Positions 1 to 41,799 of a stretch of 49,262 nucleotides of DNA are shown piece by piece; positions within the stretch are counted from its first letter, which is position 1, and every line of letters begins with the position of its first letter. Both the position numbers and the translations under genes were made by a program. The notes under the pieces are model-generated. The model was not told the origin of the DNA, searched no databases, and saw only the letters and a program-made list of their open reading frames with translations. This DNA is from Rhizaria sp. SCN 62-66. Taxonomy: Eukaryota. Location: the NCBI GenBank assembly GCA_001724265.1, contig MEDY01000216.1, positions 1 through 49,262 of the forward strand. The letters are read 5' to 3'.

Positions 1-397
1 TCTTGGCGGCAAGGATGTTAGACTTGTGCGCCTCCATGCCGCGCAGGCGCTGCTGCTTGCCCTGATCACGGAGGATGATAAAGGGCTGGCCATTCTCTGA
101 GGATGTCGTGGGGCACATGATTTTAGAGCGTGAGCACGAAAAGAAATCAACAGGTTAGAGCGCACTAAGTCGCATCAACAGATATACCAATCAATTTTAA
201 AGACATAAGATGAACTCAATTCCGTATCAGAGCGCGGGTTGGTGCTCTAAAGGGTTATGCATGTGAGACGGAACGAGGTGTCCATGAGGCACACGACAGC
301 GCAATTGAGAGGAAATATCTCATTGTTCCCGGGGTTGAATAGAGAACGTACCATCGTAGGCAACCTGGGGGTTTGCGAAATCGGGGTTAACTGCCAT
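1..397 (-). CDS. CCT5: T-complex protein 1 subunit epsilon (CCT5), 5' part; exons 397-352 and 96-<1
   Basis: Splicing GTACGT (351) to CAG (97) gives MAVNPDFANPQVAYDENGQPFIILRDQGKQQRLRGMEAHKSNILAAK. This matches the CCT-epsilon N-terminus pattern DExGxPFxIxxDQxxxxRLxGxEAxKSxIxAAK. The gene runs off the window edge and is absent from the ORF track in this form. Confidence 0.93.
97..351 (-). other. spliceosomal intron (255 nt) of CCT5
   Basis: GTACGT donor and CCTCAG acceptor; phase 1 restores the conserved D-E-N-G motif. Confidence 0.9.
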
Positions 398-602
398 ATT
401 AAAGCTATTCACGTCCGAAAACAGACAAATCGATTCAAACCAGATCTGCTCCTGTTCAAATTCGGGAAACAGCCCGCGCACGCAACCGTTGCAGGGCTGG
501 ACCGAAAAAAGGCAGCGACACAGAAATGTCACGATATCCAACTTGAAATCAAAAGTGAACCTTTGTATTACATATCATTTGCTAAATAACATAATCATTG
601 TT

Positions 603-3600
603 TTAAAATCCGCCGTTCGCGCGCGTCTTGGCCTGCGCGTTCCCGGCGTATTTCCCGCTCCACGTCAGCCGCCCGTGTGCCCCCACGCGCAGCACGGGGC
701 CCTCAACGGCGCCCAGTGCCCACCGGCGCACCGCCACGGGGCCCGTCGCGCCCGCAGCGCCACCAAGGCCGTCGTACGCACCAGGCCCCGCGGGCGCAAG
801 CCCGAGCGAGAGGTCCGTCAGCGCGCCCGCGGTCGCCGCAGTCAGGCCCAGCGCAGCACCGTGGCCGAGACCGCTGCGGCCAGCGCTGCCGCCGCTGCTG
901 ATGTTGCTGTGCGAGGGTAGCGGCGTGGTGAGCGCGTTGCGGTGGATGGAGACGGTTGCGGCGGGCGCGGCGCGGAACCGGCGGTCGAGCCAGCGCTGTT
1001 CCACCGCGATCACGTCCTCGCTCTCCTCGCCTGCGCCCGCGCCCGCACCTGCGCCCGCAGCGGCCGCGGCAGTGCCAGCGGCGCCAGCAGCGGTGCCGGC
1101 GGCGGGCCGGTTCTCGGCAAGCACCAGTGCCTGCTGCTGCTGCTCAATCTGCTGGAGCTGTTGCTGCTGCTGCGCGCTGACGGCGCCCGCGCCGCCAGCC
1201 CGCGCCTTGGCCTCTGCCGCGGCGGCTGCGCGCGCGCGCAGCGCCCCTCTGGCGGCCGAGGACTGGAGCCCGCGCGCCCAGGCCGCGGCGGCCGAGTGCG
1301 TGCCCATCGCGCGCACGCCGCGGCCGCGCGGCAGGGCGCCCGCCGCGATCACCGCCGCCGCAGCGGCCGCCGCGGCCGCCGACGACTGCGGCGGCGCCGC
1401 GCCGGCTGAGGCGGAGCCCGCACCGACGCCAGCGCCAGCGGCCGCGGAACCCGGGACAGAGTTGTTAGCGATGTTGGCGCTGCTCACATACCCGTTGTGG
1501 CTGTGAAACGCACCAACGCCGCCGCCGACAGCAGCGCTGGCGGCAGCAGCACTGGCCGCGTTGCCGTTGCTGCCCATGTGGCTGAGGTTGACGCCGCCGC
1601 CGTTCGCGCCGGTGCCCGGGTGTCCGGCTCTGAGTCCCGCCGCGCCGCCGCCGCCGCGGAGCGCGCTGAGGCCGCTGCCGGCGTGCGGCCCGCCCTGGAC
1701 GAGCAGTGCAGCGGCCTCAGCCTCGGCGGCGGCGGCCAGCGCGGCGGCGGCCGTGGCGGCGGCGGCCTCCTCCTCGGCCTCGGCGACGGCGTCGGCCTCG
1801 GCGTCCTCCAGGTCGCGCAGCCCCGCGGGTTCGCCGGCGCCAGCGGCGGCCGCGCCCGCGGAGGACGCGGCCGACGCAGAGGCTGAGGAGCCAGAGTCGC
1901 GACTGCCGTTGCGGCCGCCGGCGCGGAGGACCGTCGCCAAGGGACGCAGAAGTCCTAGAGATAAGGCAACACAAAAGACATGAGTAGAGATATGAGATAT
2001 TTGACATCAATAAAAACAACTCAAGTGAGACAACAAATATTTGCAGAATAGTCTATCTCATGCAAGTCAAGCAGTGATGCAGTACGTACCGGGGTCGAAG
2101 TTGACGGAGGGCTCCCACCAGGAGCGCAGGAAGAGCCTAAAGTCGGCCTCGGACACAGCGCCCGTGGCGTCTGCGACGGCCAGCTCGTCCAGGTCAAGCA
2201 GCCCCTCGCCCCAGCCACCGCTGGGCGCGGCCGCGGCGCCGCCCGACCCCGTGAGCTCGCCAGACACAGCGCCAGAGCCCGCGCCGGCGCCGGGGCCGCC
2301 CTTACGACCGCCCGCGCCGTTCGCGTTGGCAACGGCGGCGGCGGCGGCGGCGGCGTTCTTGCGCCTAGCCGTGAGTGCGGCGACCACAGCGCCGGCCCCG
2401 CGCGCGCCTGAGTAGGCCGACGCCGACGCCGCGGCGGCGACCGCAGCCGCCGAGGAGGACGACGACGTGCCCGCGCCCGCGGGGCCCGCGGCAGCCGCGG
2501 CGGCCGCGTCGTCATCCTCGCGCGCGCCCTCGGTGACGACGCGCAGCAGCTCCTCCTTGCTGACGCGGCCGCCGCCGGCGCGTGCCAGGGCCAGGAAGCG
2601 GAACGCGGCGGCCTCGCGCTGCGCCGCCGTCAGATGCGTCGGCGGCGTCAGCAGCGAGACGGAGCGCGACCACGACACCTCGCCCGAACGCAGCCCGCGG
2701 CGGTGCAGCAGCAGCGCCAGCAGGTCCGCCGCAGAGACGAGGCTGTCGCTGTCGGCCGTGTTCAGGTCAAACACCCCGCCGCTGCCGCTGCCGCCACCGC
2801 CGAGACCGAGACCGGCGCCGCCGCCGTTCGCGGAGCCGGGCGCAGAGAGGACGCCGACGCTGGGGCTGGAGCTCAGCAGCGCGCCCGTGCCAGCAAGGCG
2901 GCCCGGTGCGAAGAAGTCGGGCGTGTAGCCCGCGGCGGCGAGCTCCTTGCCGATCGGCTGCGTCGCCGGGTGCGAAAGCAGCGCCGCCACGCACGCGCCC
3001 AGCCGCGCGCGGCCCGCCTGCGCCTGCGCCTGTGTCGGCGTCGGCGTCGGCGAGGCCGCCGTGGCCGTCGCGCCGGCGGGTGACGTGGCTGCAAGCGACA
3101 CCGCCGCGATCGACGTGCTACCAATGTTGGCGACGCCGACGATGTTCCCGCTGGCGCCGGCGCCCGCGCCGGAGGCGGTGGCGCCGGCGGAGCCCAGCAG
3201 CGCGTGCGGAGAGAGCCCGAAGCCGAGGCCGAGCGAGGCAAGGCCGGCCGCCACGGCGGCGGGGGCCACGCTCCCGCCCGGCGCGCTGTGCCCGTGCCCG
3301 TGCCCGTGCCCGTGCCCGTGCCCGTGCCCGTGCGCGTGCCCGTGCGCGGCGCCCCCGCCCCCGCCATAGTAGGACCCGTGCGCGCTCGCCGCCGACGGCG
3401 CGGTGCCTGTGCCGGAGGCCCCGGGCACGGCGGGCAGCGTGAGCGCCAGCGAGCCTGCGCCAGCGCCGACGAGAGAGTCCGCGTCGGCGTCGGCGGCGAC
3501 GCGGTCCACAGTGCGCTGCATGGCGCCGATGAGCTGCCGCGTGAGCGACACGGGCACGGCCGAGCGCAGCACGTTGAGCTGTTCGCGCGTGGCGCCCACG

Positions 3601-5840
3601 TAGAGCGCCTCGAGCAGCCGCGGGAAGGACAGGTACGCGTGCAGTGCGGCCTCCAGCTCCGCCGCGGGGACTCCTGTCGCCGCCGCCGCCGCCAGCGCGG
3701 CGGGGGACAGCACCAGGTTCGCGTTGCTGCCGTTGCCGCTGCTGCTGCAGCCGCTGCTGTTGCTGCTGCTGCTGTTGTTATTATTGTTACTGTTGCTCAC
3801 GTGTCCGCTGTTGCGTGCACCGGTACCGTTGGCGCGCCCGTTCGGCCCGGCCACAGCGGCGTTGCCGGGGCCGGCGGCGGCGTTGTTCGCGGACTGGCGC
3901 GCGAGCGGGTCGCCCGTGGCGGCGGCCCACGCGGCCGACGCTTCATCCTCGAAGCCCGAGATGGCGGCGGCCGAGGGCAGACGCGCGATGCGCGCCAGCA
4001 TCGCCGGCTCCGCCAGCGCGGCCGCAAGGTCGCGCGCAAGCGCCGAGGCCTGCAGCAGCGCGGGGGGCGGCCGCCGCAGCACGTGCAGGCGGATGAGGCC
4101 GCGCGCGTCGGCGTCGAGGGCGTCGAAGACCGCGAACAGCGCGCGGGCCTCGCGGGGGGAGAACTGGGTTGGGGGGAAGCGCGCAAGGCAAGGGGGTTGA
4201 GGATATGGAGATACGGTGAGACAATACTGATTGATGATGATGTTACGCTAGCTAAATTTTACAAAACAACTCAAGAGATCACTGGAAAACAGAATATGGT
4301 AATGAAATTTGTTAATGCGCACCTTCTCCGAGAAGCGGAAGCGAACCATGGCGCCGGAGTTGAGACTGCCCTTGCCGCTGCCACTGCCGCTGCCGGACGC
4401 GCCGGCGCTGCCCCGGGCCCGCGCGCGGCGGCCGCTGCCGGGCGCAGTGCCGCCTGCCGCCGCGGGCGCAGTTGCCGCTGCAGCAGCGCTCGCAGCGGCC
4501 CTGGGTTGCGACTGTTGCTGCTGCTGTTGGAAACTGCTCGAGGACTGGCCGCCCCGCGCGCCGCCGCCGCTGGAGGCCCCCGTGAAGGAGCCCAGTCCCA
4601 GCAGCGCCAGCGGCGACGGCAGCGGCTGCCCCCTGTTGTACGCGGCGCCACCCCCGCTCGCGGCCGCCGCAGTCGCCGCCGCAGTGAGCTGTGGCGCGAA
4701 CCCGAGCGCCGAGGCCAGCTCGCTCGCCGTGAGCCCCGCGGCGCCCGCACGCCGGGCCTCGGACGCCACATGCGCCAGCGCCGCCGCCAGCGCGCCCGCG
4801 CCCGCGCTCACGGCCGCCGCCAGCGCGGAGGCCCGGTTCGGCGTGCTCTCTGACAGGAGCAGCAGCGCGCGCGCAACGTCCTCCTCCGCAGCGCCGCCAG
4901 CGCCGCCATTGCCGGCGGCGGCGGTGCTGCCGAACACGTTGGCACTCGCGCCGCCGCCGGTGTGCAGGGTTGGGAAGGGGGCAGCGGGGAGCGCGAAGAC
5001 GCAGGCGACCGCGTTGGCGACGTGCGCGAACAGGCGCAGCACGCATTTACGCGGCATGCCGCCCCGGCCGCGCGCGCGCCCACGCACGCGGCCACCCACC
5101 GCGCCCGCGCTCGCACCCGCGGCCGCAGGCGTCAGCGTCGCAGTCGTCGATGCAGCAGCAGTGGCGGGAGTGGTTGCTGCAGCGGCGGCGTCAGGGCTCG
5201 CGGCGCCTCCAGCCGCGGCAACTGAGGCGCCGGGAGCGCCCTTCAACGGCGTCGCCGCAGCGCCGCCCGCGGCGGGCTTGCCGGGGGCCGAGCGCGAGGG
5301 CGGGCGGCGGCTGCTGAAGCGGTACGTGGCCGCCGCGGCCGCGGCCTGGTCGTGGCCATACGCAGCGGGACCCGGGCCGCCGGCGCCGGCGGTGGCGACG
5401 GCGCGGCCGCCCGCCGCGGCGGCGGCGGCGGCGGCGGCGGCCGTGGCGGCGGTGGGCCCCGCAAGCGCGTCCGCGTCGAGGTCCTCGGGCGCGAGCGAGA
5501 AGAGCGCGCACAGCGCGTCGGCCTTGGCGCGCGGGGCGGCGTCGCAGAGTAGCACCAGCACGGTCACCAGGTGCGCGAAGGGCACCGTGGTCAGTGGCGG
5601 CACCGCGCCCGCGCCGGCGGCGTTGGCGGCGGCTGGGGACGCGGCGGAGAGGTGCGCGGCGAAGAGCGCGGGGTCGCCGCCGAGCGCCTACCACACCGCG
5701 GCCGCGGGCGGCGAGAAGGAGCCCACCGCCGGCGCGGGCGGGCCCGAGAGCGACGGGGACGGGAGCGGCGGCGCGGCGGCCGCGACAGGGCTCGGCACGG
5801 CGTCGCCGTCCGCCGGGAAGGCCAGGTCTGCGTCGACGTC

Positions 5841-5883
<43 letters not shown>

Positions 5884-6281
5884 AAGTTACTGTCGGTGTT
5901 GCTGGCGGGCGAGAGGGGAAACTGTGGGGAGCCGGGGCCCACCGCGACGGCGGCAAGTGGGCCAATAAACGCGCGCGCGGCCGCGCCGTCGCCCGCGGCG
6001 CCGATGCGGAGGTCCGCGGGGATGAGCTGCGCGATGTCGGGGACGCGGCCCAGGCGGGCGTTTTGCGAGCCCGCGGCCTGGGGCCCGCAGAGGCGGAGGA
6101 ACATCACGGGGTCAACGGCGTAGCCGAAGCCCGCCTGGTGGCGCTCAAACAGAGGCGTCAGGGCGCGGATGTCGACCAGAGACCAGCGGCCAAAGTGGCG
6201 CAGGGCCGGGTGGATGCAGTCGGCCCAGCACCGCACAGGATCCTTGTGGGCCTCCAAGAGCACATCCAAGATGTTGCCCAT
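603..6281 (-). CDS. Large EF-hand-containing low-complexity protein (~1794 aa); exons 6281-4323, 4163-2090, 1954-603; internal in-frame TAG at 5690-5688
   Basis: ORFs 5688..6281, 4248..5603, 2067..4082 and 603..1940 join through two phase-compatible GT-AG introns and read-through of one TAG. EF-hand-like segments: ARALFAVFDALDADARGLIRL, VFDLNTADSDSLVSAADLL, ARAGGGRVSKEELL, DATGAVSEADFRLFL. The N-terminus MGN.. is a possible myristoylation site. Ends in TAA. Confidence 0.72.
1955..2089 (-). other. spliceosomal intron (135 nt)
   Basis: AT-rich island, GTACGT...CTCTAG; phase 1 joins DP-G-LLRP. Confidence 0.85.
3288..3345 (-). repeat. (GTGCCC)n hexamer repeat encoding a His-Gly run
   Basis: Tandem GTGCCC units seen directly; translates as HGHAHGHGHGHGHGHGHGH on the minus strand. 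Confidence 0.9.
4164..4322 (-). other. spliceosomal intron (159 nt)
   Basis: AT-rich island, GTGCGC...CCCAG; phase 0 joins FSEK-FSPREA. Confidence 0.85.
5844..5882 (-). repeat. (GCT)n trinucleotide tract encoding poly-Ser
   Basis: Pure GCT run on the + strand, read as AGC codons in the minus-strand gene. Confidence 0.9.
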
Positions 6282-6602
6282 GGGAGACCTGTTTGATCGT
6301 CCAGAAAGGATTTAAGAAAATAAATGAATATTTGTAAGTTTGAATTGTCTAAACATTGAATTACACGTCTTGGAGATGCTACTGGCATGTGACTTGATCA
6401 GATTTCAAAACTGGCTTGACGATCAGGCTAAACCGTTTCTTTCGACCATGTACACGAGGGAGAGTTCAAAGTCGAACTGAAACAAAGCATAACTCACTTC
6501 AATAGCCATTAAGTGATAAATTAGGCGCGGATTGCGATACCTGTGTTGTTCATTTTTATAATCCCTTTTTACTGCTTTTAAATTTGTTCTTGAATAGGGC
6601 TT

Positions 6603-8021
6603 ATGAACCGTGACAAGCCCGCGGTGGAGATGCCCGAGGTGCGAATCGACCCCGTCAAGTTCGCGCTCGACGACTTCGGTCTCGACGACGACTGGCAAAC
6701 GCTCACGCACGAAGACGTGCGCGACCTTCAGAAGCTCTTCGAGTTCTTTGTCGCCCAGGTACGCCCTTATCATTCTCTTCAACACTCCTCTCCAAGTAAC
6801 CACCTTTCGATCGCCTGCTCTGTTCATGACTATGCTCATTATCTGCTCTGCTTGACCCAATACCTTTCTGTTTGCTGCTCGCGTGTGCATTTTCCTGCGC
6901 AGAACCCCGATACGGTGGACCCCGCGGATGAAGAGGAGGACGACGACCCGACGGACGACGAGGACGACGCCGCCGCGCTCGTGGGCTACCCCAACTCATC
7001 CTCGCTCAACAACCCCTCTGCCACCCAAAGCTCCGGAGCGCTCTCCGACGGCAACGCGGCCTTCTCGGCATCAGGCCCCGTCCCGGGCGCGGTGGCGGCG
7101 GCGAGCAAGCCGAAGCGGCCGCGCGTCTTTTCGACCCGCGGCGCGGCGCGGCTGCTGCAGGCGCTGGGGCTCTTCCTGCCCTTCCGCGACGTCCAGCGCA
7201 TGCTCAACGACACCAAGCGCTACATCGACCACGTACGTCCGGCAGTCATGCAACCGCTACTCAGACTGCGCGGTGTATCTTGTGTGATCATGAAATATGT
7301 CATTCTATGTTGATTCCCAACGTCATCGTGCTCACCTGTCTCCGCAATTTCCACAACTTATTCTTCGTTTTTATTAACAGGGCCGCCCCGCGGGCGCGCT
7401 TGATGCCGGCCTGACCTCTGCCTCGTCTTCTGGCGGCCCTGGCGGCGACCCGGCGTCCGCAGACGGCGGCTTTTATATCCCGGCCTCTGACGTGCGCGGC
7501 CTGACGTACGACGACTTCGTCATGCTCTATGCGCTCGCCAGCAAGGAGCTCTCCACCGACCGCGAAGTACGCCAGATTGTTATATATGTGTTTGTGTAGC
7601 CGTGCAATACGAAATCGCACATTCGTGTAATCGCACTCATCACTTCACTCGTAGTCATGTTCTCGCCTCTCTCACGCATGCCTTGTTTTCACTCACCTTG
7701 ACTCGATGTCTCCATTGTCCTCGCTCTCCTTCACTCCATCCTTAGGTGCGCGAGGCGTTCCGGTTTCTGGACGACGACTTCGACGGCTTCGTCGAGGTGC
7801 CGAAGCTGGTGGCCGTGTTGGGCCCGCTGCTGGGGCTCGACGCGCCGCGCACGCAGGCGCTGCTGCTTAAGGCGCGCGCGCCCGCCGCGGCGGGCAAACT
7901 GGCCCAGACCGGACACGGCGCCGCGCGCGCGCAGGCTGCGCAGTCGGCGCTGAGTCCGCAGGACTGGCTTCAGACCGGCAAGATGTCCTACGCAGAGTTC
8001 GTCGAGTTCCTCAGCATGTGA
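6603..8021 (+). CDS. Calmodulin/centrin-like EF-hand protein (~315 aa); exons 6603-6758, 6903-7232, 7381-7566, 7746-8021
   Basis: Three phase-0 introns: GTACGC..CAG 6759-6902, GTACGT..CAG 7233-7380, GTACGC..TAG 7567-7745. The spliced product has a calmodulin-like order: LTHEDVRDLQKLFEFF ... LLQALGL..DVQRML ... LTYDDFVML ... EVREAFRFLDDDFDGFV ... GKMSYAEFVEFL. Ends in TGA. An extra 5' exon is not excluded. Confidence 0.85.
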
Positions 8022-9451: not shown

Positions 9452-10907
9452 TCACCAAAGTGCCAAAGGGAGATCCATGAGCACCGTGACCGCAGTCTCC
9501 GCCCCGGCCGCGCCGGAGCCACCCGCGCCCGCGCCGCCCGCCGCCGCGCTGCCGCCCGCGCCGCCCAGCGGCCCTGCGTCGGCGCCCCAGAGCGCGCGCG
9601 GCCAGAGCTGGTCGCGCGCCGCAGTGACGGCCTCAACCGCCATGCCCATGCCTTGGCCGGTGGTGACAGTGACGGTGTGTGGCTCCCGCCCCGCGCTCGC
9701 AGTCGCCTCCATGCATCCGCCGTCGCTCGCCGCAGCCACGCCTGCTGTCATGTCTGTTGTCGGTGCTGCTGTCGGCGATGTTGGCAAAGCGGGGCCGTAG
9801 AACGCGGGGTCGATCCAGAGCGGCACATCGGGGCGAGGCAGCGGCGTCAGCGCGGGCCGCAGCAGCCACTGCGCGCCGCCACCCTTCCCCGCGCCAGAGC
9901 CAGAACTAGAGCCAGCGCCAGAGCCAGTGTCAGCGCCAGGGGCACTGCATGCCGTGGCGTCAGCGGCGTCAAGCGCGCTCTTGCCGCCAACGACACCCGC
10001 GCCCGCGCTCGCAGTCGCGCCCCCGGGGAGTGCAGACGGGCTGTTGTGGAGAGAGGTGCGAAGCCTGAACGAGGCTACAGCGACGGGGGCGGCGGCCGCG
10101 GCGACGGCAGCGGCGGCGCGCGCGGCTGCAGTAAGTACAATCTCCGCAGCCTCCGCAGGCGCCAAAGCTGTGTCTTCATTGTTATTGCTATTGTCACTGC
10201 TGTCCGCGACGGCTGACGCAATGACGTCTTCGAGCATCTCGAGCAAGGGCCGTGTCGGCAGGCCGCGCGCCGTCACACCGACGGAGGCGTCCACGGTCGT
10301 GCTCACAGTCACCCCGCAGCCGCCCACGGTCGCCCCCGGTGCGCTCGCTGGCGCGGCACCGCTACTCCCAGTCACGGGGAAAGTTGGACTGCTTGCGTTC
10401 GCGCCGGCGCTTGTGTTGGCGCCGGCAGCCGCGGTGATTGTGGTCGCGCCGACGGGCGGCAGCAGCGGCACGGTACCCACGGTCACCGTAAGCGGCACGA
10501 CAAGCTCCCGCGACGGATCGTGGCGGCTCACGGTCACGCCGCTGCAGCAGTGGCAGACAGGCGCGGCCGACGCCGACGCCGGCGCCGCACTGTGAGCTGT
10601 GTCCGCAGGCTCCGCGCCCCATGGACTCAGAGTCAGGGTTAAGCCGCCTCGATAAGGACTCGAGCCGCCCTGTCGTTGTGGCGCGCAGTGCCGCTGCGGC
10701 GGCCCGAGCTCGTAGCGCACCACGGGCAGCGTGCCCAGGTCTACGTGCGCCAGCTCGACGAGGTCCAGCGCGGCCGTCGCCGCAGCGGTCGCCAGGGTGG
10801 CGGCGCACGCCGCAAGAAGGGCGCGGGCTGCGCCATTGCCCGCACTGCAGCCGGGGTAGGGGGCGACTGCGCCCGAGTCGCCGACCTGCGGCAATGAGCG
10901 TTGTTGT

Positions 10908-10939
<32 letters not shown>

Positions 10940-12370
10940 ATGTTGCCGTTGTTGCGGCTTGAACGGACTGGCGCCGTGCACTCCACGCCCGCCCTGTCCG
11001 TCTCTCGTGTGCCCCTCGTCACCGCCCACAGCAACGCCCACCACACAATCGCCGCCAGAGCCTCTGTCAGGCCGCACGTGGGCGTCGCTGACGCCCGCCG
11101 CGAAGCCCTGTGCGTAGACAACTAGCCCGCGGCCGTAGCGTGGCGCGTAGGATGACAGCTGGCCCCGCACGTGTTCCGCGTGCGTGCCCGAGCTCGCCCA
11201 CAGCGCCTTGGAGTCTACCCACGAGTACGCCGCGGTCGGTACCACCGCGCTCGCGGCCGCCGCATTCGCGACCGCGGCAGCGCTGCCGGCGGGTTTGGGG
11301 GACGCGGCGGCGGCAGCAGCGCCGGCAGCAGACAGCGGCAACGGCACCGATGCCGATAACGACGACGATGATGACGACGACGACGACGATGACTGGGAAG
11401 GCAGGAAAGGGGAAGGAAATGACGGTGACGCAGCGCTCGCGTGCTGATGAGGAGACAAAGGCGCCGGGCCAAAGGCCGCCGCACTGTTGCTGCTATTGTT
11501 GTTGCCGCCAGTGCCACTGTGCGCGTGTGATTGTGAGTGCGAGTGCGCGTGGAGGGGGAAGGGGAGCGGCAGCGGATAGGGCAGGAGCACGTCGGGCGTG
11601 CGCGAAAGCGCCGCGGTGCGCATTGAAGACTCGGGGATCGCGGGGAAACCCAGCGAGGTCAGCCGCAGCAGCATGTGTTGTCTAAGCAAATGCGGCAGAC
11701 AGGAATTAAATTTAGGATGGCGTGAGCATGAGGACATGAAAGGCGAGATATGCTATAAGCATCGGGTCAGACCAAAACAAAGACAAAGGTATCTCGTGAA
11801 ATAAATCAAGTTAAACAAATGCATGGTGCTACAGTTCGTTACGTACTCGTAGAGCTTGCCGACGATGCGTCGCACGCGGACCGAGTGCGGGGAGCTAGCG
11901 TCGACCCAGCCTGCCGCGGCCCACATCTGCCGCCGCACGCCGCGCTCCGTGCGCGCCAGCGCAGCCGCTGCGGGGGTTGCAGGCGCCGCCAGCGCATGCG
12001 TCGGCGCGGGCGGCGCAAGGAAGCAGGCAAAGACATCCGTGGCTTGGACGTGCGGAGGCAGGAGCGCGCGGAAGGAGTCGGTCTGCGCGAGCGCGCGGGC
12101 CAGCAGCGAGGGCGAGTACCCGCGCGCCAGCGCCACGGAAAGGATAGACCGGGACGCGTCCTGCGCGAGCTCTTTGTGAATCTGGAAAAGGTGCTTGCGG
12201 ATGAGCGCGGACTGCTGCTTCGAAGCGGGCTGGCTCGACTGGGAGTAGATACTCAGTAGCGCATTGTAGCTCACGCCAGTCGCCTGGTGCAGCGCGGCAA
12301 GGTCGCCCTGCGAGCCCCGTTGCACTACTTCAACAAGAAATTTTGCGGAATGCTAGGATAAAATGCTCAT
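9452..12370 (-). CDS. CDIN1: CDIN1/C15orf41-like (TPD domain) PD-(D/E)xK nuclease with a long low-complexity C-terminus (~917 aa); exons 12370-11847, 11681-9452
   Basis: Family motifs appear in order: ALLSIYSQ, GYSPSLLAR, GKLYE, LGFPAIPESSMR..SRTPDVLLPYP, WVDSKA, QLSSYAPRYGRGLVVYAQGF. Intron GTACGT..TTAG 11846-11682 gives LYE-QHML. The start at 12370 needs TAG read-through at 12355-12353; an alternative start is 12485 with an extra intron. Ends in TGA. Confidence 0.82.
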
Positions 12371-12602
12371 CGTGCCTGGCAGTCTAATAAATTTGCTTTG
12401 ACGATGAGGACTCCGAGATTTTCAACGATGAAGAAACAATGGCATCAGCCCTCTCTCGGTTCGCGCGAACTTGCCACAAACGCATCTTTGTTTGACAAAA
12501 CAAAGATGTGCTACTTGAAGAAACAGTTTGGTGGTGCAAAACCACTGTATTATGGCCCGTAACTAAGTATTCTTCCCATATTAATTATTATAAATGCATC
12601 TA

Positions 12603-14977
12603 TCAATCATCATAGAGCGCAAAGATGTCCGCCGCATCATCCTCCGCAGCAGGCGCAGCAGGCACGGCTGGAAAAGCAGTCTCTGTCGCGACAGAAGGGG
12701 CTGCAGGAGTAGGAGTGTCTTGCTCCACCCGCGCCTTGGCCATGGCAAACGCGGCACGCATCTCTGCCTCGTCCTCCTCCTCCTCCTCGCGCTCTCGCTC
12801 GGCCGCCTGCGCCGCCTCCCTCTGCAGCCGCTCTTCCTCCGTCTCGGTCTCCGCCGCAGTCACTGCGTCTACTTGCTGCGCGGTACTGCCGGTGCCAGCT
12901 GGTTGCAGCTCAGCGCGAGCCTGCTCCTGCATGCGCTGCAGCTCGCGCACGCGGGCGCCCGCCTCTGCGCTCATGGCGCCGCCGCGCATGGCCACCGCGT
13001 CGACCTCCTGCCCCGTGAGCCGCGCGTGCACCGCCGCCAGATCCCGCTCCAGCAGCAGCGACGCAGAGTCCCCCGCGATGGTGGTAACGCTGGCGCGGCT
13101 GGCGTGCGCGTTGCCGGCCGCGGCGGCCGCGGCGGGCGTGCCGGGCTGCGCGAAGTTGACTGGCGTCTCGTCGATGAGCGCGTTGAACGCCGTCGTCTGC
13201 AGGTTCGGCACGTAGGGCGGCATAGGCGCCGAGGGGCGGTAGTCGCGCTGCCCGCGGTACGCGTCTGCGACGTCGCGGTAGAAGTGCGTCGCCGGGATCG
13301 GGTGGTACACGGGCACACTCAGGTCTGCCTCAGACGCGGACTCTGACGCAGATGACGACTCAGACGACGCTTCCGCTGAGGCCGAGGCTGAGGCTGAGGG
13401 GACGGAAGGCGGCAGAGGGGGTCCGAGGCAGGCGCGGAGGCGCGCGCGGACCCAGGCCAGCTCGCCCACGGTCGGCCGGAAGTCAAACCTCGGGTACGGC
13501 GCCGGGACCGGGGCGTCCGCGGTCACAGCCACGGCCGCAACAGCGGCGTCAGAAGCGCCGATCACGCTCGAGCCAGTGCTGGCGCTGCTCGTGGGCTCCG
13601 GCGCGAAGGGGTAGAATGTGACGGGCCGGTCGGGCCGCGGCATGCGGCTGTCCGCGTGCCGCGCGCCCGCACTCACGCCGACGTCCGCGCCATTGCACCC
13701 ACTCGCGTTCACAGCAGCCGCAGCAGCCGCAGCAGGCGCGGCAGCCGCAGATGTCGCAGATGTCGCAGTCGTAGCGGCCGTGACAGGGGCCGTGGCCGTG
13801 GCGTTGCTCTCGGCCGCAGTGCCGGTGGCGCGGAGCACGGCGGCAGACGTGACGCCGGCGCGCGGGTAGAGCTGGCGCGTGCTCTTGCTGACGGCGAGCC
13901 ACTCCTCGTCGTAGCACAGACAGCGCGGCGCGCCGGGCACCGCAGGCAGCGAGAACACGTGCAGGAACGAGCGCCCCGGCAGGATCTTGTCCAGCGCCAG
14001 GAACCGCGTCGCCGACCCAGCGGCCTCTGTGTTCCCGCCACTGTTGATGCTGCTGTTGTCAGCGGCGCCAGTGTGCGGGATGAGGGCGGGGAACTCGACG
14101 TGGAGGTGGGCGGCGAACCAGTAGGGCGGCCGCAGCACCTGCACGAGCCTGTTGTGCGCTGGGGAGCCGCCCAGCGTGCCCGCCGCGACCTCGTCGCGGA
14201 AGAAGGGCTTCGCGCGACACAGGCGCTCGCTGTCGCCGTGATCCGCGACGCGGAGCGGCCAGTCGTGCGAGACGACGACGTCGACTGGGCGCGCTAGCTG
14301 GGAGAGCTGGAAGAACTCGAACTCGCGAGCGTGGTACAGCGAGCGCATCGAGCCCGCGTCGAGCGGGGAGAACTCGTGCCGCGGCGAGTAGAAGTCGCGT
14401 TTGTCGTAGATTCCCGAATAGCCGGCGACTCGGATGCCCGCGAAGTTGACGACGCCCGCGAAGCCCATGTAGTAGATGTTGGGCGCGACCCATCCGCCGT
14501 GCGCGAGCTCCATCAGGTGGTTGCTCGCCTCGTGGTTGCCGTGCACGAACACGGTCGGGTACGGCGCGGTGAGAGTGCCCAGGTAGTACTTCCAGAAGGT
14601 AACCATGTGGCGGAACTTGATGGGACAGGCCATGCACGCGAGGTCGGCCTCGTTGCGCACGGACTCGAAGTCCCCGCAGCAGATTACCAGGTCGATCGGA
14701 CGCTGCTGCGGGTCGTTGCGCTCCAGGTCTGAGATCGCAGAGTACATGGCCTCCACCTCGCCGTGTACGCATCCCACGACGGCAATCTGAGTGGGAAGTA
14801 CGGGGCATGGTGAAGGAGTCGTTAGACAGTGCGTGATGTGGTGAGAGTATCAGAAAAGTGTGCGAGAATGGCAGAGCAACGGTGGAGTGGTTCAGACAGT
14901 ACAGATCGAACAATCTAGTAGTATAATTGAAATATAATACGTACGCGCACATCTTTGTTTTGAGCTTCGGTCGCCAT
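12603..14977 (-). CDS. DBR1: RNA lariat debranching enzyme (~738 aa); exons 14977-14945, 14786-12603
   Basis: Intron GTACGT..TCAG 14944-14787 gives MATEAQNKDVR-IAVVGCVHGE. Dbr1 metallophosphoesterase motifs are present: GCxHG, CGDFES, GNHE, SHDWP, YWFAAHLH, FLALDK, YDEEWL. Ends in TGA. Confidence 0.95.
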
Positions 14978-15441
14978 AGTGATTGACGGACGAAACAGCC
15001 CAGGCATATTCGTGAAAATCCTTATCTTGCTTGCCCCACTGCCAGAGTCGCAGCAGCGCCGAACAGTTTTCAAGAGGATATCAACAAATGTTTCGGTGCT
15101 GGAGACAAGAACTGTCGCGGCAAAATGTATATTTGGCTTTGACGTTGTTCGAAAAAAATATGTTTTGCCGTCCTTGTTCGGGTGGGCTCAGGCAGGTTGC
15201 CCTGGAGGTGACCGTTGGCAACCACCTACGAAGACTTGACTTCAATGAATCTGGCTCTCAGATGATACCGATGCTTGTATTGTTTGCGTCAGGTGGTGGC
15301 AAGTTTGTGGACGCATGTTTCTCTCTGTCCTTGACACTCTCTCACATCCTCTCCTCTCGTACATGAATCTTCGCATCCAGTCTCAAGCGACCTCCAGACA
15401 ACACAAGAAGTCGCTCTCTTGCGTCAACTACCGTTGATTGC

Positions 15442-18400
15442 ATGTTTGGCCCTGTACGCCTTGATGCTGCAGCAGCGGCCGCCGCTGCAGCTGCGATACA
15501 GAGCGCAAGCGCGTACACCTCAAGCTCTGCCTCTCACATCAACGCGAGCGGGACCAACACGAGCGCATCGAGTGGCGGCAGCAGTGCCATCAACGTCAGC
15601 TTTAGCGAGCGCGCACGTCGCATGCTCTCGGTTCAGCGCCCTACACCGACTGTTACACTGGACCTCGCCACGCTCGCCTCGGTGATGGCTCCGCAACCGC
15701 ACAGCTTGCAGCAACAGCAGCAACAGCAACAGTCGACGCAAGCACAAACCGCGACGCCTGTGACAGCGCCAACAAGTGTGAATGGCAGTATTCGGGCTGC
15801 ACAACACAGCGGTGTACGCCGCAATGTGCGCGCACCAACGGCAACAGCAGCGACGTCTCATGTGTCGGCAATCGCTGTAACGACTGCGGGTGCGGCAGCA
15901 CCTGTGCGGAAGCCGGCTGTGCCAGTGTCAAACGTCAAGCGTCCAACGAATGCCGGCATGAACTCGACAGCGCAATCGCACGGCGTTGGTACAGCGGTGG
16001 TGAATGGTCGAGTCGTCAATCTTAACCGCCCAAAGCCAGACACGTCAACGTCACATCGTGATAGTACCGCGAGCGACGCGCGCCGCAACACCAACAGCAG
16101 CGAGGTAGCCTCTTCGCCCTCGACTGAGCCCGCGCCCGAGTCCGGTGCGAGCGCGAGCGCGGGCACGGCGGCCCCGGTGTCGGCCGCGACCGTGAGCGCG
16201 GTGACCGAGAGTCTGGCGTCGCTGACGCGCACGCACGCGCGCGTACTGTCGGAGCGCGAAGGTGACCGCGCACGGCTGCGCACGCTCGCGCTCGCACTCG
16301 AAGCAGCGCGCGCTGAGGCGCAGGAGGCCGAGGGGCGCGCGCAGGCCGCCGAAGCGCGCGCGGGCAAGGCCGCCGCCGTCTGCGAGCGCCTGCGCAGGGG
16401 CGCGGGGGAGGGCCGCGCGCTGTGGGCCTTGGCGGAGGCAGAGGCCGGCGCTGCCGCACCAGACTGTGACGCAGACGATGGCACTGTGAGCGGCACAGAC
16501 GTGATCAGCGGCATCTTATTCGCAGTGAGTCAGAAAAACACTAGCGGTGTCAATGAAAGCAACGGTTTCAATGGAAACAATGATCACGAAGACGAGGACG
16601 ACGACTTCTATCGCGCGAACGCCTCCGAGTCTGCAGTTGACGCAGAGCAGCTGAACGAAGATGAGACCTTGCAGGAGCCGTTGCCAGCGCTTATTCCAGT
16701 GCCAGTACACGCTGCCGCGCTGGCCCGCCTGCGTCGCCGCCATGCCGCGGCCGCGCAGGCGCTCCGCACGGCGCTCGCCGCCGCACGCCGCGATAGCGCT
16801 GAGGCCGCGCGCGCGCATGCGGCCGCTCTGGCGGCCGCGGAAAGCGAGCTCGAGCGCGTGCGGCGGCTGGAGCGCGCCGACGCGGAGGCCGCGGTGGTGG
16901 CACTGGCGCAGGCGGGGCGGGACGTGGTTGCCGCGGCCGCGATGGTCGACGACGACACCGTTGACGTCGGCGGACAAAGTGCATCTGAGAAGGCGCTGCT
17001 TAGTTCGGGCCCTGTGGGTCCCTCGCCGGTTAAAGCATTGCGGTCTGCCGCGAAGTGGTTTGTCGATGATGCGACCTTCAAAGCAAAAGCGTTTAGTAGC
17101 AACAGTGCACAGTCCAGCTTGGAGCAAGAGCACCAAACGCCTGTGCGGAGTGCGCGCAGTCCGCACAGTGGCTACGGTGCCAGTGCGGAGCCTGGTAGAG
17201 GCAGCCGCGTGCGCGTGCTATGGGGCACACGCTCACCGTTTGCGCCAATCTCTCCTACTTCACCGCATGACGACCAGAGCAATGATCACGATCTCTCGGC
17301 AGCGTCGAAGTCGACTGTACGGAACGCCAGCACCGAGCATGTCGGTCGCCAAACCGGACCTTCGTCGCCGTTTGGTGACCTTCTGTCTGACAGTCTCGAC
17401 AACATCGACGATGAGAATAAGCGCCAACAACAGCAGCAGGCTGTCCACGGACAAGTTAATGATCTCTCTTTGATCGGCGCTCTTGGACTCGCCCAAGTTC
17501 ATGCTAGCCCCAGCGCGAACGCAGTCACTCGCCGCAGTTCTCGCACCACGCCCAGTGCGAATATTACGAAGGTCCGTGTTGATGCCGAGGCTCTTGATAA
17601 TGCGAGCGTGCTCAACACGAGCACGATTGACGCGTGGGGCCCGTGTCCGGACTGTGCGCGCCACATCGCTGAGGACGGCCGACTTAAGTCGCACGTGTCG
17701 TTGTTGAAGGAGGAGGTGAATCGGCTTAATGACGAAACCACTACGCTAAAGGCCGAGGTTGCACGCTTGACTGCTGAGCTCTCTGCTGCTGCGCTGGCCA
17801 CTGTCACCGCAACTGATGCAGCAGCGCTGGCGGCAAGCCGAGCCGCCTCGGCTGAGGCTCGGGCTGTTGCATCGGAAGCTAAGGTTGCTGCCGGTGAAGC
17901 AGAGATCATGAGTCTGAAGCGTGAGTTAGCGATCGCGAGGAGCGATGTAAAGACAACCACGCAGCAGCATCTGCAGCCACTGCTTTATCCGACGAGGCCT
18001 CAGCAGCTGCAAAATGGAGCACTTGACTTCAGTGCGTACTCAGCTGCCCTCGGTGGCACTGCTCACAACCACACATCACCCGCGCTTGGCAACTCAGCTG
18101 CCGGGGGTGTCAACGAGTCAACAGTGCTTTCCCAGTCAGTGCTGCACTCAATGCTTTATCAACAGCAGCAGCATTCTAATCACACGTTCATCAACGCCAA
18201 CACGCTTCACAATGCGTCTCTGTTTCAAAATGTGGCGCCGGCTTCTGGCTCCGCGGCTGCCACTGCAGCTTCCGCTGTAGCTGCCGCGGCCGCATTTGAG
18301 CGCGAGCTTCTTGCCGCGCGCGCCGCTGCTGCTGAGCGCGAGTGCGCGCGTCTTCTCGACCTCTCGACTGCCACAGCCGCTGAGACTGCAGCAGCAGTCA

Positions 18401-19305
18401 CCGCTGCGGATGCTGCGCGCGCTGACGCCGAGGCCCTCGCTGCTGAGGCTGCTGCGGACGCCCAAGCAGCGCGCGCCGAGGCAGAGGCCGCGCGCGCGGA
18501 AGCCGGTGCGGCACGCGCCGAAGCTGGTGCTGGCGTTGAAGCCCTGCGCGCGGCTGCGGCAGCGCAGGTGGCGACGCTTGCGAGCGAGTGCGAGCGGCTC
18601 CGGCGCGCGGCCGAGGAAGGCGAAGTGAGGCGTGGAGTTGAGGTGGGCGCACTGAGGCAAGACATTGTGCGGGTAATTGCGCATGCCGCGGAGGAGGTAA
18701 AGCGGGCTAAGGCAGAGGCCACGGCGACTGCAGCCATAGCGAATATGAACATGGTCCCCACGCCTATTGGAAGTAAACGCAATGATGCGACGTTATCTCG
18801 CAAAGATAGCGGTGCTGCTGTCGCTTTGGGTGTTAGTGTGAGCAGTGTTAACACTGCAAGCCAGATTGGACCAATGTTTCAGCGCTACCTCGCACAACAT
18901 GCTGCGGCACAGCAAAATGCTCAACTTTCAATGCAACAGCATCCAGCGCAACTACAGCAGCGTGAGCAGGTGCGCTCAAGCCCTACACCCACGCACCAGC
19001 ACCATGCTTTATCTGTGCAGCAGCACCAACAGCCTCAGCAGCAAAGGCAGCCGCCACAACAGCAACAGCAAACTCTCGAAGCACAGCTGCGCCGGGACAT
19101 GCAAGGCGCGTTTGCTGCGAGTCCGCCGCCGCTGGACGCAAGCGCGATGGTTGCAATGGGGACATTTGTGGCGCGCAACGGCGGCGCTGCTGTTGCTGCT
19201 GCTGCTAACATGGACGCAAACACGAGAGTTGTTGCGACGCCGGCTGCAGGTGTTGTGTATGCTGCTACGGACAAAACAAGCATGCAACTAAATAACACGC
19301 TGTAA
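15442..19305 (+). CDS. Hypothetical coiled-coil, Ala/Gln-rich protein (1287 aa or longer)
   Basis: Long uninterrupted ORF with heptad-like segments (LKEEVNRLNDETTTLKAEVARLTAEL), a CPDC motif and Q-rich ends, flanked by AT-rich DNA. Ends in TAA. The frame stays open upstream to a CAG at 15380, so an upstream exon is possible. Confidence 0.8.
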   Translation: MFGPVRLDAAAAAAAAAAIQSASAYTSSSASHINASGTNTSASSGGSSAINVSFSERARRMLSVQRPTPTVTLDLATLASVMAPQPHSLQQQQQQQQSTQAQTATPVTAPTSVNGSIRAAQHSGVRRNVRAPTATAATSHVSAIAVTTAGAAAPVRKPAVPVSNVKRPTNAGMNSTAQSHGVGTAVVNGRVVNLNRPKPDTSTSHRDSTASDARRNTNSSEVASSPSTEPAPESGASASAGTAAPVSAATVSAVTESLASLTRTHARVLSEREGDRARLRTLALALEAARAEAQEAEGRAQAAEARAGKAAAVCERLRRGAGEGRALWALAEAEAGAAAPDCDADDGTVSGTDVISGILFAVSQKNTSGVNESNGFNGNNDHEDEDDDFYRANASESAVDAEQLNEDETLQEPLPALIPVPVHAAALARLRRRHAAAAQALRTALAAARRDSAEAARAHAAALAAAESELERVRRLERADAEAAVVALAQAGRDVVAAAAMVDDDTVDVGGQSASEKALLSSGPVGPSPVKALRSAAKWFVDDATFKAKAFSSNSAQSSLEQEHQTPVRSARSPHSGYGASAEPGRGSRVRVLWGTRSPFAPISPTSPHDDQSNDHDLSAASKSTVRNASTEHVGRQTGPSSPFGDLLSDSLDNIDDENKRQQQQQAVHGQVNDLSLIGALGLAQVHASPSANAVTRRSSRTTPSANITKVRVDAEALDNASVLNTSTIDAWGPCPDCARHIAEDGRLKSHVSLLKEEVNRLNDETTTLKAEVARLTAELSAAALATVTATDAAALAASRAASAEARAVASEAKVAAGEAEIMSLKRELAIARSDVKTTTQQHLQPLLYPTRPQQLQNGALDFSAYSAALGGTAHNHTSPALGNSAAGGVNESTVLSQSVLHSMLYQQQQHSNHTFINANTLHNASLFQNVAPASGSAAATAASAVAAAAAFERELLAARAAAAERECARLLDLSTATAAETAAAVTAADAARADAEALAAEAAADAQAARAEAEAARAEAGAARAEAGAGVEALRAAAAAQVATLASECERLRRAAEEGEVRRGVEVGALRQDIVRVIAHAAEEVKRAKAEATATAAIANMNMVPTPIGSKRNDATLSRKDSGAAVALGVSVSSVNTASQIGPMFQRYLAQHAAAQQNAQLSMQQHPAQLQQREQVRSSPTPTHQHHALSVQQHQQPQQQRQPPQQQQQTLEAQLRRDMQGAFAASPPPLDASAMVAMGTFVARNGGAAVAAAANMDANTRVVATPAAGVVYAATDKTSMQLNNTL

Positions 19306-29642: not shown

Positions 29643-31549
29643 TTACAGCCGCCTTTGTTGTTGCTGCTGCTGCAACATCTGTTCTTGCAGACTTACCGAC
29701 CCAGAGCTTGCAATGAGCACTACACGGCGCTTTTGGTCCGCGCCAGCAAGCCTCATCCGAATCAGGTCGTGCGCGCTCAGACGCGATGCTGCGCCGCGTT
29801 GTTGCGGGGTTGCCGCAGCGCCGCCTGCTGCCTGTTGCGCACCGGCATTCGTGTTGCCTGTACTAGTCGCGTTTTCCTTGTCCTCTGTGGTATCAGACTC
29901 GTTTGCATGCCTGCTTAAAGCGCTGCTGCGCTGTTTTGCTGTCCTTGCTCTTAACGCAGCAGCAGAAGTCCTTGTTTTGTTGCTCACAGCTGGCCCCGCT
30001 GCAGTTGCAGCGTCTAACGCCGCGCTAATTTGAGCCGCTGCCTCTGTGCCAGGTTCCAGCGCGGCCACCGGCGACGGCAGCGGCAGCGTATGCGATCGCG
30101 TGGTATCGGCCTCGGTTTTCACATCAGCACTGCTTGCTGTATCGGAAGTTTTGCGAAGAGATGAGGCAGTGACAATTGGCGATGCCGCAGAACGGGCGGC
30201 GGAAGCTACTGCAGCAGCTGCTGCAACAGCGGCGGCTGCGGCAGAGACAGGCACTGCAAGGGCGGCGCGCACAGACGCGGGTTGGCGGGGCAGGGGCAGT
30301 GGCGACAGCGGCAGCGGGGACGATGACGCCTCTGCCGTTCGAGCCCCGGCTGCAGGTGACTGAGAGCGCACCGAGTGCCGACGCCTGCTTGTATGAACTT
30401 GAGACGGGGGGCTAAACTGAAAGCTTATATCATTGCCACTTGCGTCCGAGCGAATTGTCAATGGTGATAGGCCTGCTGTTGTGCGCCCTAAATCCGACTG
30501 GCTAGGTGCAGGGTAGAACGAGAACGTTTGATCGCTCTCGTCGCCACTGTCGCTTTCGCCGTAGCGTCGGTCATTGCGCCGTCTGCGTTGTCGCTGGTGC
30601 AGACGACGCTGCCCAGTCGCGCCTAACCTTGCAGCAGCGCCAGTGCTAGTGCCCGCTCTATTTTGACTACTTAGATCATCGTCCACTTTTGTTTGCGAAT
30701 CTAGTCGCTGTGAAAATGAGTTGTGGAGTGAGAGCGCGCGGAGGCCCCGGGTATCGAACGCATGACCAGCCCTCCCGCCCCAGTTCGCCAAACCACTCCA
30801 CGCCGCCACTAGCGCGGCAAGTGAGATGAAAGTGGTGAGGACTACGACCGCGGCCTTGCCTGCATCACGTCCTGGCAGCAGCGAGGGGAATGGCGAGGGG
30901 GCCCAGTCGCCAGCGCCCGCCCACAACCAGGGGGCAGCGGAGCGTGCGAGTGATGAAGGATGGAGTTGAAGATGAAAGATTGTAACTGGCTCGTCAAGGG
31001 TCACAGTGAGTGTGGTGGGCGCAAAGAGTGGAGACGAGAGTGGGAGTACAGTACTTAAGCTGGCGGCCTTGGTTGCAGTGTTCATGGGAACTGATGAGGG
31101 GTTCAGAGAAACATGCGCACGCAGCGATGAAGAGAAAGTGGTGTTTTCTGGTAGAACCCAGTCTGCAATGATTGGGCCTGTGCGCAAAATGTCAGTTGAC
31201 AGTTCTTGTGAGATGTGAACAATACGAAACTATTTGTGCTTCAAGTCATGACGTGAGATTCGCTTAGTAAGCTTAAGAACGTACGGTATGGTGTCCAGGA
31301 GGTATAGAGCGTATCGAGAGTTTTCACAAGGCGAGTAGATGTTTCATCGTTTACGTAAAGAAACGTGATGACGACTGGAAGTGAGAGCGCTGGGTCAAGT
31401 GGCGCAGTGCAACTATCATCAGGAAGCACGATACCCTTCAGGAAAGCCGCCTCGTTGAGCGAGATTGGAGTTGTCGCTTCATCTGCCAATATGCCTAAGC
31501 AGAGACACAATACCCCTATAAAAAGCAGCAAAGTCTCAGCAAGACCCAT
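29643..31549 (-). CDS. Predicted type I membrane protein (~599 aa); exons 31549-31285, 31177-29643
   Basis: Signal-peptide-like N-terminus (MGLAETLLLFIGVLCLCLGILA). Intron GTACGT..CTGAC..CACAG 31284-31178 is phase-compatible. TM-like segment AAVVVLTTFISLAALVAAWSGL precedes a disordered tail. Ends in TAA. Confidence 0.72.
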
Positions 31550-37250: not shown

Positions 37251-37294
<44 letters not shown>

Positions 37295-40200: not shown

Positions 40201-40314
40201 TGAGAAGGTGGAGGACGAGAGAGGGGCCGAGGCAAACGGGGAAGGAAAGCGGTAGCCTGTTGATAAGCCGGAAGCGGGCGCGGCACCATAAAAAGCGTCG
40301 CGGCCGGCCGACAT
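31786..40314 (-). CDS. Giant hypothetical low-complexity protein (~2842 aa) with an internal in-frame TAG at 35031-35029
   Basis: ORFs 35029..40314 and 31786..34962 are in the same frame, separated only by a TAG and 22 sense codons, with no AT-rich spacer. Family not recognised. Ends in TAA. Confidence 0.65.
37250..37298 (-). repeat. (CGT)n trinucleotide tract encoding poly-Thr
   Basis: Near-perfect CGT run, read as ACG codons on the minus strand. Confidence 0.9.
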
Positions 40315-41799
40315 AGCGTGAATGAGCGGGTGTGGGTGACCAGGGGTGGGGGAAGTTGAGGAGAGGAATTCGAAGGCTCAATGCAGAGGCCTCGGCGGAT
40401 CCAACCTAAATCAGAAGATATACAGGTAGTAGAGAAGACACAATTAGAAAACAATGTCTCTGGGGTGCATTCAGTATCTGTGTTGCATGTAACAGGACTA
40501 TAGACGGATGATGTGTCTATAGACATCTTCACAAAGGCAGCGACGACGTTGCCTGCCTCAGTCTTGCACACGATCGTGGCACCTCGACAAATCCCTGCAC
40601 AGCCCCATGGCAAGGCGAGAATGCCATTAATGTGTGGCAGTCGGTCCTTCAACACAATTTTGAGCATTTTGTTAAATCGGTGCTGCTGGTGACGTCCGTG
40701 GTGTTGCTAAGCAATCGGTGGGAGGCACTTTCCTCGAACGGCCAGAAATCAGGGCATCGACAAAGCCTATTTGCCTTTGTATAGCGCGCCTGCATGTTGG
40801 CCTCGGAGAATACCTGCAAGGGTATGCCCGTAACGCGGTGTGTTCAATTCACATATGTTGACTTTCTTTGGTAAAACATTCAAATATGCGCCGTGCCCCT
40901 CCATGTATTGCCACAACTTGTTTGCTGCATCAAGCTCGATGTCATTATCAACTCATCTACGAGCATACCGTCGATACAAAAGAATGACTGCACCTATTCT
41001 CTCAATGCACCAATACATGCTACGTGTTATACGAAGTCATTTTTACTTAGGTGAATCATTCATATCCAACGCGGTCAAGAAAGCCAATGAGCTACGCTGG
41101 ACATTCGAGACACGCTCGATGATCAAGCGCAATACTAAACAAATCTACCATCGCTGAAATTCAAATATGGCAAGTGTGAGATGTTGGGGTACTTGAATCA
41201 AAATCTTGGTTTGCTTTAGCGCGCGATTATCTCGTGATGCTGGTGTGAATGTGCTCCTGAAACGACTGGTCGAGGACTCGAAATAGATCTTCAGACACGG
41301 ATTAGACTGACACAATAAACCCACGTTAAAATAAAACGCATATATGTAATATATTGCGCTGCAACCTAAAAGTTAATGGCGGTGGCTAACTTAGACTCAA
41401 GCGATAGTAAACTGAAATCACGACATTTGACACAAATGGTGTGGCTGCTCACGGTCGCCTCGTCGCCTTTCGCCACGAGACAGCATGAGATAAGAAAAAG
41501 CTGGCCCGGCGTCCATATCCGTTGAATACGGATACCATGTCTTTTGAGCCATTAACTATGTGTTTGATTGCGCGTTAAATTGTATCTCTAGTCTTGTTCG
41601 CCTTGCACTCACCACAAACAAGTCCTTGCCCTTCATGCTTTCCTACCAGAAACGTTGCCTCGTCGCTCGTGCATACCAGCATCCCTAGAACCACTGTTGC
41701 AGAGTGTTACTCACTGCGACAAGCAGAATTACATAGAATTGCATTTACTGTTACTAAACATCACCGTCAACAAAGTGGGACGCTTGCTTTCATTCCGCC

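Follow-up and report, generated by a model that had tools for sequence, protein, structure and literature searches.

Two nuclear genetic codes outside the ciliates have been reported in which UAG alone is reassigned and both UAA and UGA are kept as stops. They are those of Rhizaria sp. exLh, where UAG specifies Leu, and of Iotanema spirale, where it specifies Gln (PMC5304391). According to that report, 71 genes of exLh carry 384 in-frame UAG codons, and all 71 end in UAA or UGA (PMC5304391). Among ciliates, reassignments of UAG which arose independently are described from the phyllopharyngeans (PMC11687900), and an oligohymenophorean ciliate is described in which UAA and UAG code for different residues (PMC10553269). 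A genomic UAG can also be dealt with in the RNA. In Fusarium and Neurospora premature UAG codons are repaired by A-to-I editing, a stage-specific process which the sources describe only from filamentous ascomycetes (PMC11156358, PMC4817773, PMC5496914).

We have analyzed a contig of 49,262 nucleotides (MEDY01000216.1, hereafter the window), in which an otherwise intact gene is interrupted by an in-frame TAG at 5688–5690 on the minus strand. Since sequence of the window is found in bioreactor and wastewater metagenome runs, we regard it as a contig of an uncultured eukaryote. Among the papers listed by a literature search on wastewater protists with UAG in frame, none was relevant.

As with exLh and Iotanema, an uncultured protist was spotted by its interrupted reading frames, UAG is the only stop that occurs in frame, and genes end in UAA or UGA (11/11 here, 71/71 in exLh; PMC5304391). 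The density is very different: two sites in approximately 13,000 codons (one firm, at 5688, and one probable, at 35029) against 384 in 71 genes of exLh (PMC5304391). The window differs from both of these organisms in the extreme GC-richness of its exons, and in being known from one 49-kb contig alone. Ciliate nuclear genomes are AT-rich, and the window, with exons of 75–80% GC, shows no sign of a ciliate origin. It does share with the ciliates mentioned above the decoupling of UAG from UAA (PMC11687900, PMC10553269), and with Fusarium and Neurospora the interruption of an otherwise intact gene by a genomic UAG (PMC11156358, PMC4817773, PMC5496914). Lastly, a single stop in a lineage-restricted, low-complexity gene, with a sense codon in the orthologue, is what an ordinary nonsense polymorphism or a young pseudogene would look like; unlike these, the locus has no other lesion, a neighbouring gene has a second TAG, and no gene is terminated by TAG.

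The interrupted gene at 603–6281

The window consists of exon-like blocks of 72–83% GC, interleaved with AT-rich spacers and with introns of 35–50% GC. Its genes lie on both strands, and their introns are few, with donors of the form GTRCGY. The model of the interrupted gene was read by eye and its frames were then checked for stops. It is predicted to comprise three exons on the minus strand with a total of 1794 codons. Exon 1 (6281–4323; 653 codons, TAG included) is divided by the TAG into 197 codons before it (5691..6281, MGNILDV...AAAVW) and 455 codons after it (4323..5687), which contain no in-frame stop and end in ...RFRFSEK. Intron 1 (4164..4322, GTGCGC...CCCAG, 159 nt, GC 0.43) leads to exon 2 (2090..4163), which starts FSPREARALFAVFDALDADARGLIRL... 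and has 691 whole codons over 2091–4163 without a stop. Intron 2 (1955..2089, GTACGT...CTCTAG, 135 nt, GC 0.36), predicted like the first from the sequence, is followed by exon 3 (603..1954), which is stop-free for 449 codons over 606–1952 and closed by a TAA at 603–605; the DNA downstream of this terminator is AT-rich (GC 0.41). The TAG is codon 198 of the gene, and the other 1,793 codons are free of stops, which is unlike a decaying pseudogene. With GC3 at 0.87–0.91 on both sides of the TAG and no second stop, an old pseudogene is rejected.

The predicted protein is rich in Ala, Gly and Ser. It had been taken from the sequence for that of an EF-hand gene, a label for which there is no support: no EF-hand match was returned by Pfam for the four gene pieces at E <= 1 or for the exons at E <= 0.01. 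Indeed the gene pieces match no Pfam family, the sole match being a low-complexity one to Dehydrin (E = 0.37). The EF-hand matches below the Pfam cut-off belong to the neighbouring plus strand gene; inspection of exon 2 by eye shows no more than a loose DxDxxxG-like stretch. AlphaFold, run on a two-row alignment, gave a pLDDT of 36, too low for use, and a search of the ESM Atlas with residues 1–120 gave a top score of 0.89 and no lead. The gene contains a (GCT)n run in exon 1 (5840–5885), translated as poly-Ser, and a His-Gly dipeptide repeat in exon 2 (3290–3350). The contigs of other runs end at repeats such as these. Upstream lies an AT-rich spacer (6282–6602, GC approximately 0.40), between the divergent start codons ATG 6281 (minus) and ATG 6603 (plus), which is probably a promoter region common to both genes.

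On the minus strand the ORF which begins with ATG 6281 is closed after 197 codons (span 6281..5691) by the TAG, and past it the frame continues for 455 stop-free codons to AAG|GTGCGC, the exon ending at 4323 and the donor GT occupying 4322–4321. The sequence-only reading was correct in this, that is, in describing an ORF (5688..6281) stopped by TAG with a frame running on to a splice donor, and also in noting that the next ORF listed in this frame (4248..5603, minus) has only a GTG start. Its further observation, that GC content and codon style are the same before and after the TAG, agrees with both of the measures used. GC3 is 0.86–0.98 in the part of exon 1 before the TAG (5691..6281), and 0.94–0.98, in the same phase, in every 150-nt window from 5831 to 5457 on either side of it; the 200 nt downstream of the TAG have a GC content of 0.79. 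A codon-usage log-odds model, for which two other genes of the window served as the training set, gave the minus frame +0.45 bits per codon over 5691–6281 and +0.70 over 5400–5687, the plus strand shadow frame scoring -0.01 and +0.26; over 4350–5687 the minus frame scored +0.42 bits per codon. Of the stops in all six frames, 188 are flanked on either side by 50 stop-free codons, and in only five of these do both flanks exceed +8 bits. The strongest pair of scores, 22.8 and 34.8 bits, belongs to the TAG at 5688. Of the other four, the stop at 4248 falls within intron 1 of this gene, which is AT-rich; those at 27329, 44859 and 45039 are opposite long plus strand ORFs.

Opposite exon 1 a shadow frame of 604 residues (4309..6123, plus) is also open, sharing its GC-rich third positions, and it would mislead ORF-based gene callers. 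Since such a frame too stays open in DNA of 80% GC, openness alone is little proof of coding. As a true gene the shadow frame is rejected, for both codon usage and the homologue P0001 favour the minus strand.

P0001 is a protein of 667 residues from a 15,957-base metagenome contig, and was matched with E = 1.4e-62 by the read-through translation, in which the TAG was given as X. Like the window gene it begins with MGNIL, and residues 1–110 of the two proteins align with many invariant columns. Its coding-like part closes with the same RFRFSEK|V, while the alignment reaches YRFSSRR; beyond RFRFSEK|V it corresponds to what is intron in the window. P0001 is thus the naive ORF spanning the first exon of a related organism's orthologue, an exon that forms one unbroken frame. 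Alignment of homologues had been proposed as a check on the TAG, and P0001 passes over the site without a gap (VGSFSPPAAAVW-X-ALGGDPALF versus VGTFSPPAAEVW-A-ALGGDASLF in P0001), having an Ala opposite the TAG at this one site in one homologue. No block of the alignment is better conserved than the one which holds the TAG (5661..5717, minus; FSPPAAAVW-TAG-ALGGDPALF, with AAEVW-A-ALGGDASLF in P0001). Here 15 of the 18 residues which flank it are identical, against 46% across the 329-residue match. From the gapless alignment it follows that the gene is read from the minus strand, that a single protein includes both flanks of the TAG, and that an intron removing the TAG would cost conserved residues.

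Relatives of this protein are scarce. A word-index search with the 653-residue read-through translation returned P0001 as its one match, and the same search with residues 1–330 returned none. An HMMER profile run against 1.84 billion representatives returned two matches, P0001 and P0002; the latter, a TPR-like repeat protein, was rejected as a chance match. A metagenome scan with P0001 and two viral-contig scans each gave no loci. On the sequences compared, the gene family appears to be nearly an orphan one, with one true relative among 1.84 billion representatives. ORF pieces of the window, those of this gene among them, are absent, by exact look-up, from a collection of 15 billion proteins.

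Removal of the TAG by splicing would call for an intron of the local kind, running from GT to AG with a GTNCGY donor, AT-rich, 135–180 nt long and unconserved as protein. No GTNCGY donor occurs in 5691–6281, upstream of the TAG, the earlier reading having found none there within the local intron size range, and the sole one in 5400–6281 is at 5511, downstream of it. The lowest GC content of any 100 nt in 5400–6000 is 0.63, versus 0.43 and 0.36 in the two introns of the gene. An intron excising the TAG is therefore rejected on its missing donor, on a GC content of at least 0.63 and on flanks conserved without a gap as protein. That reading had itself named a splice junction as one way in which it might fail; the P0001 alignment together with the lack of a donor rules this out.

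The TAG is also present in Logan contigs of 445 nt from two other runs (X2 and X3), which cover 371 bases of the window (5457–5827) with no differences, TAG included. At the TAG these contigs have a depth of 4.6, with neither a break nor a variant. The contig sets of X2 and X3 are identical and probably represent one data set, so they count as one further assembly; X2 and X1, the probable source run, belong to one study. The TAG is a true genomic codon amid a conserved, single-exon coding stretch. Parts of the gene are also present in a poly-A metatranscriptome (X5), of which the pieces listed reach 5628, short of the TAG. Two of the eight pieces listed (4263–4437 and 6641–6909) contain intron sequence and may derive from carried-over DNA or from RNA not yet spliced. 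Among the X5 pieces listed there is no splice joint, even for the two good introns of the gene.

Terminators and a second, probable in-frame TAG

Twelve rough gene models of our own were drawn up for the window, of which the first, a partial CCT gene, does not end inside it. The other 11 end at 603, 8019, 8536, 9452, 12603, 19303, 19636, 29364, 29643, 31786 and 48571, six with TAA, five with TGA and none with TAG, and each terminator is trailed by 200 nt with a GC content of 0.29–0.46. TAA is a frequent terminator here although several of these genes have a GC3 of approximately 0.85–0.9. If TAG is assumed to have its typical share of 20–25% of terminators in this lineage, the chance of finding no TAG among 11 terminators would be about 4–9%, and the lack of TAG ends is no more than suggestive. 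In the 13,042 codons of the main segments of the 12 models no in-frame stop other than two TAGs was found. Yet in these GC3-rich genes 64% of the single-base routes that lead to a stop end in TAG (69% if only transitions are allowed), so that in-frame stops which are exclusively TAG would also be expected of nonsense mutations. Neither a tRNA gene of any kind (ARAGORN) nor an Rfam match was found in the 49-kb window, and a gene for eRF1 is absent from it.

The second in-frame TAG (35029–35031, minus; ...LPLQMQL-TAG-QHIQQQQQ...) is located in another gene, whose frame of 8.6 kb (31786–40377, minus) is otherwise stop-free, with 1782 and 1080 codons on the two sides of the TAG. Codon bias is flat in this gene. 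Over the 600 nt which follow the TAG the in-frame score is approximately 0 bits, yet this is more than 45 bits above any other frame. Moreover, the 200 nt after the TAG have a GC content of 0.66 and form no AT-rich spacer, versus 0.29–0.46 after the 11 terminators. We consider it probable that this TAG is internal to the coding frame. With a downstream coding score near zero it could instead be the true end of a separate upstream gene, and a genuine TAG terminator would overturn the reading of UAG as a sense codon. A search for homologues of the region, which covered longer proteins only, gave no matches.

Possible decoding of UAG and the competing explanations

The explanation we rate likeliest, at a probability of roughly 0.45, is that UAG is a sense codon for this organism or is efficiently suppressed by it. 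UAA and UGA would then terminate the genes, and the consequence would be a full-length protein. This is favoured by the position of the TAG in the best-conserved block, without a gap and with 15 of 18 residues identical; by frame, GC3 and codon usage which are constant across 5688; and by the stop-free condition of the remaining 1,793 codons. Beyond this gene it is favoured by the second TAG, lying in an 8.6-kb frame with no AT-rich spacer after it, by the lack of TAG ends among the 11 terminated models, and by the lack of any in-frame TAA or TGA in 13,042 codons. In-frame UAG alone, combined with UAA or UGA at the ends of genes, is moreover the signature described for exLh and Iotanema (PMC5304391). 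Several observations weaken it: two TAGs per approximately 13,000 codons are few beside the 384 in 71 genes of exLh (PMC5304391), 64–69% of single-base routes to a stop yield TAG in any event, the window has no tRNA or eRF1 gene, and the RNA contigs listed end short of the site.

It is conceivable, though we hold it only tentatively and at somewhat less than even odds, that this is one more non-ciliate nuclear code, of independent origin, in which UAG alone has been reassigned. The low usage of UAG possibly represents an early stage of reassignment. If UAG is indeed translated, a GC-rich lineage with few UAG codons would illustrate an early or low-usage stage of the process, and standard gene callers would truncate the proteins of this organism, with which the absence of the pieces of this gene from the collection of 15 billion proteins is in keeping. 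Should the TAG prove to be a simple nonsense allele, there would be nothing unusual in it.

A recent nonsense allele is the principal competitor, and one which we doubt on balance but regard as a serious possibility. Here a single-base change would have struck a fast-evolving, low-complexity orphan gene, the gene would now yield a truncated product of 197 residues or be silenced through nonsense-mediated decay, and the downstream part would still be open since the change is young. One TAG in one orphan gene makes this the simplest reading, and it fits the single site at 5688 equally well. TAG is the expected product of 64–69% of nonsense single-base changes in these genes, the relative P0001 carries a normal Ala codon at this position, and the TAG has neither a read-through context nor a structure. 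A gene with one true relative in 1.84 billion representatives may well be dispensable. On the other hand, a nonsense allele does not account for the lack of a second lesion in 1,793 codons, nor for the lack of TAG at any gene end in the window. The 445-nt contig of X2 and X3 shows no second allele, albeit at the low depth of 4.6. The second TAG, which lies in a different gene within these 49 kb, would raise the number of knockouts to two in 12 genes, a heavy load.

Programmed read-through of a normal UAG, specific to this gene and giving a 197-residue product with a scarcer long form, was the proposal of the sequence-only reading, and approximately 1,600 codons of frame do follow the stop. We now think it improbable. 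What stands of that proposal is the continuous coding exon without an intron. The other attributes of a read-through site do not: the stop is not conserved, the orthologue P0001 having Ala in its place, and it splits a conserved block instead of lying at a domain border. The 126 nt from the stop onwards fold with z = +0.55, and 141 of 200 shuffled sequences fold at least as well. The context UAG GCG CUC is not known to be one that promotes read-through.

A-to-I editing, by which UAG would become UIG and be read as UGG (Trp), as occurs in the sexual stage of filamentous ascomycetes, strikes us as more improbable still. Such editing is described as favouring an A preceded by U and as frequently acting on UAG (PMC11156358, PMC4817773, PMC5496914), and both in-frame stops of the window are TAG. 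But nothing places an organism with exons of 78% GC among the filamentous ascomycetes. In the minimum-energy fold, furthermore, the UAG is situated in a stem and not in a hairpin loop, which is a weak argument.

An error of sequencing or assembly in the source contig is scarcely credible. The source is a metagenome assembly and the other runs are shallow (4.6 over the site), but the Logan contigs of X2 and X3 are identical to it across 5457–5827, the reading frame is unshifted at the TAG, and the 3,907 bases which a second assembly of this organism shares with another part of the window match it at 100%, which indicates a good consensus. A base-call error, which the earlier reading had listed among the possible objections, is thus unlikely, the X2 and X3 contigs carrying the identical TAG. 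Pyrrolysine and selenocysteine were dropped, since the former is not known from eukaryotes and the latter is encoded by UGA.

Other features of the window

Pfam identified a lariat-debranching enzyme (DBR1), an RMND1/DUF155 domain, a TPD domain and weak EF-hands among the other genes of the window. Positions 1–400 (minus) contain the start of an intron-bearing, chaperonin-like gene (CCT/TCP-1-like by eye) which is cut by the edge of the window. Between two long genes lies a 1.5-kb AT-rich stretch (40338–41844, GC 0.47) with no obvious gene.

Codon bias varies sharply along the contig. In three long genes (15367–19305, plus; 29643–31229, minus; 31786–40377, minus) the GC content of the codon positions is nearly flat, with GC3 at 0.54–0.73. 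They adjoin genes with a GC3 of 0.84–0.91, a strong contrast in codon bias between neighbours.

The gene at 12603–14849 (minus) specifies the lariat-debranching enzyme (Pfam Metallophos and DBR1), which an Atlas search confirms as a eukaryotic DBR1. Its first residues lie outside the ORF, and a small upstream exon is likely. A metagenome scan with this gene returned only L001, from the same organism, a 3.9-kb contig of another assembly which is 100% identical to 10106–14012.
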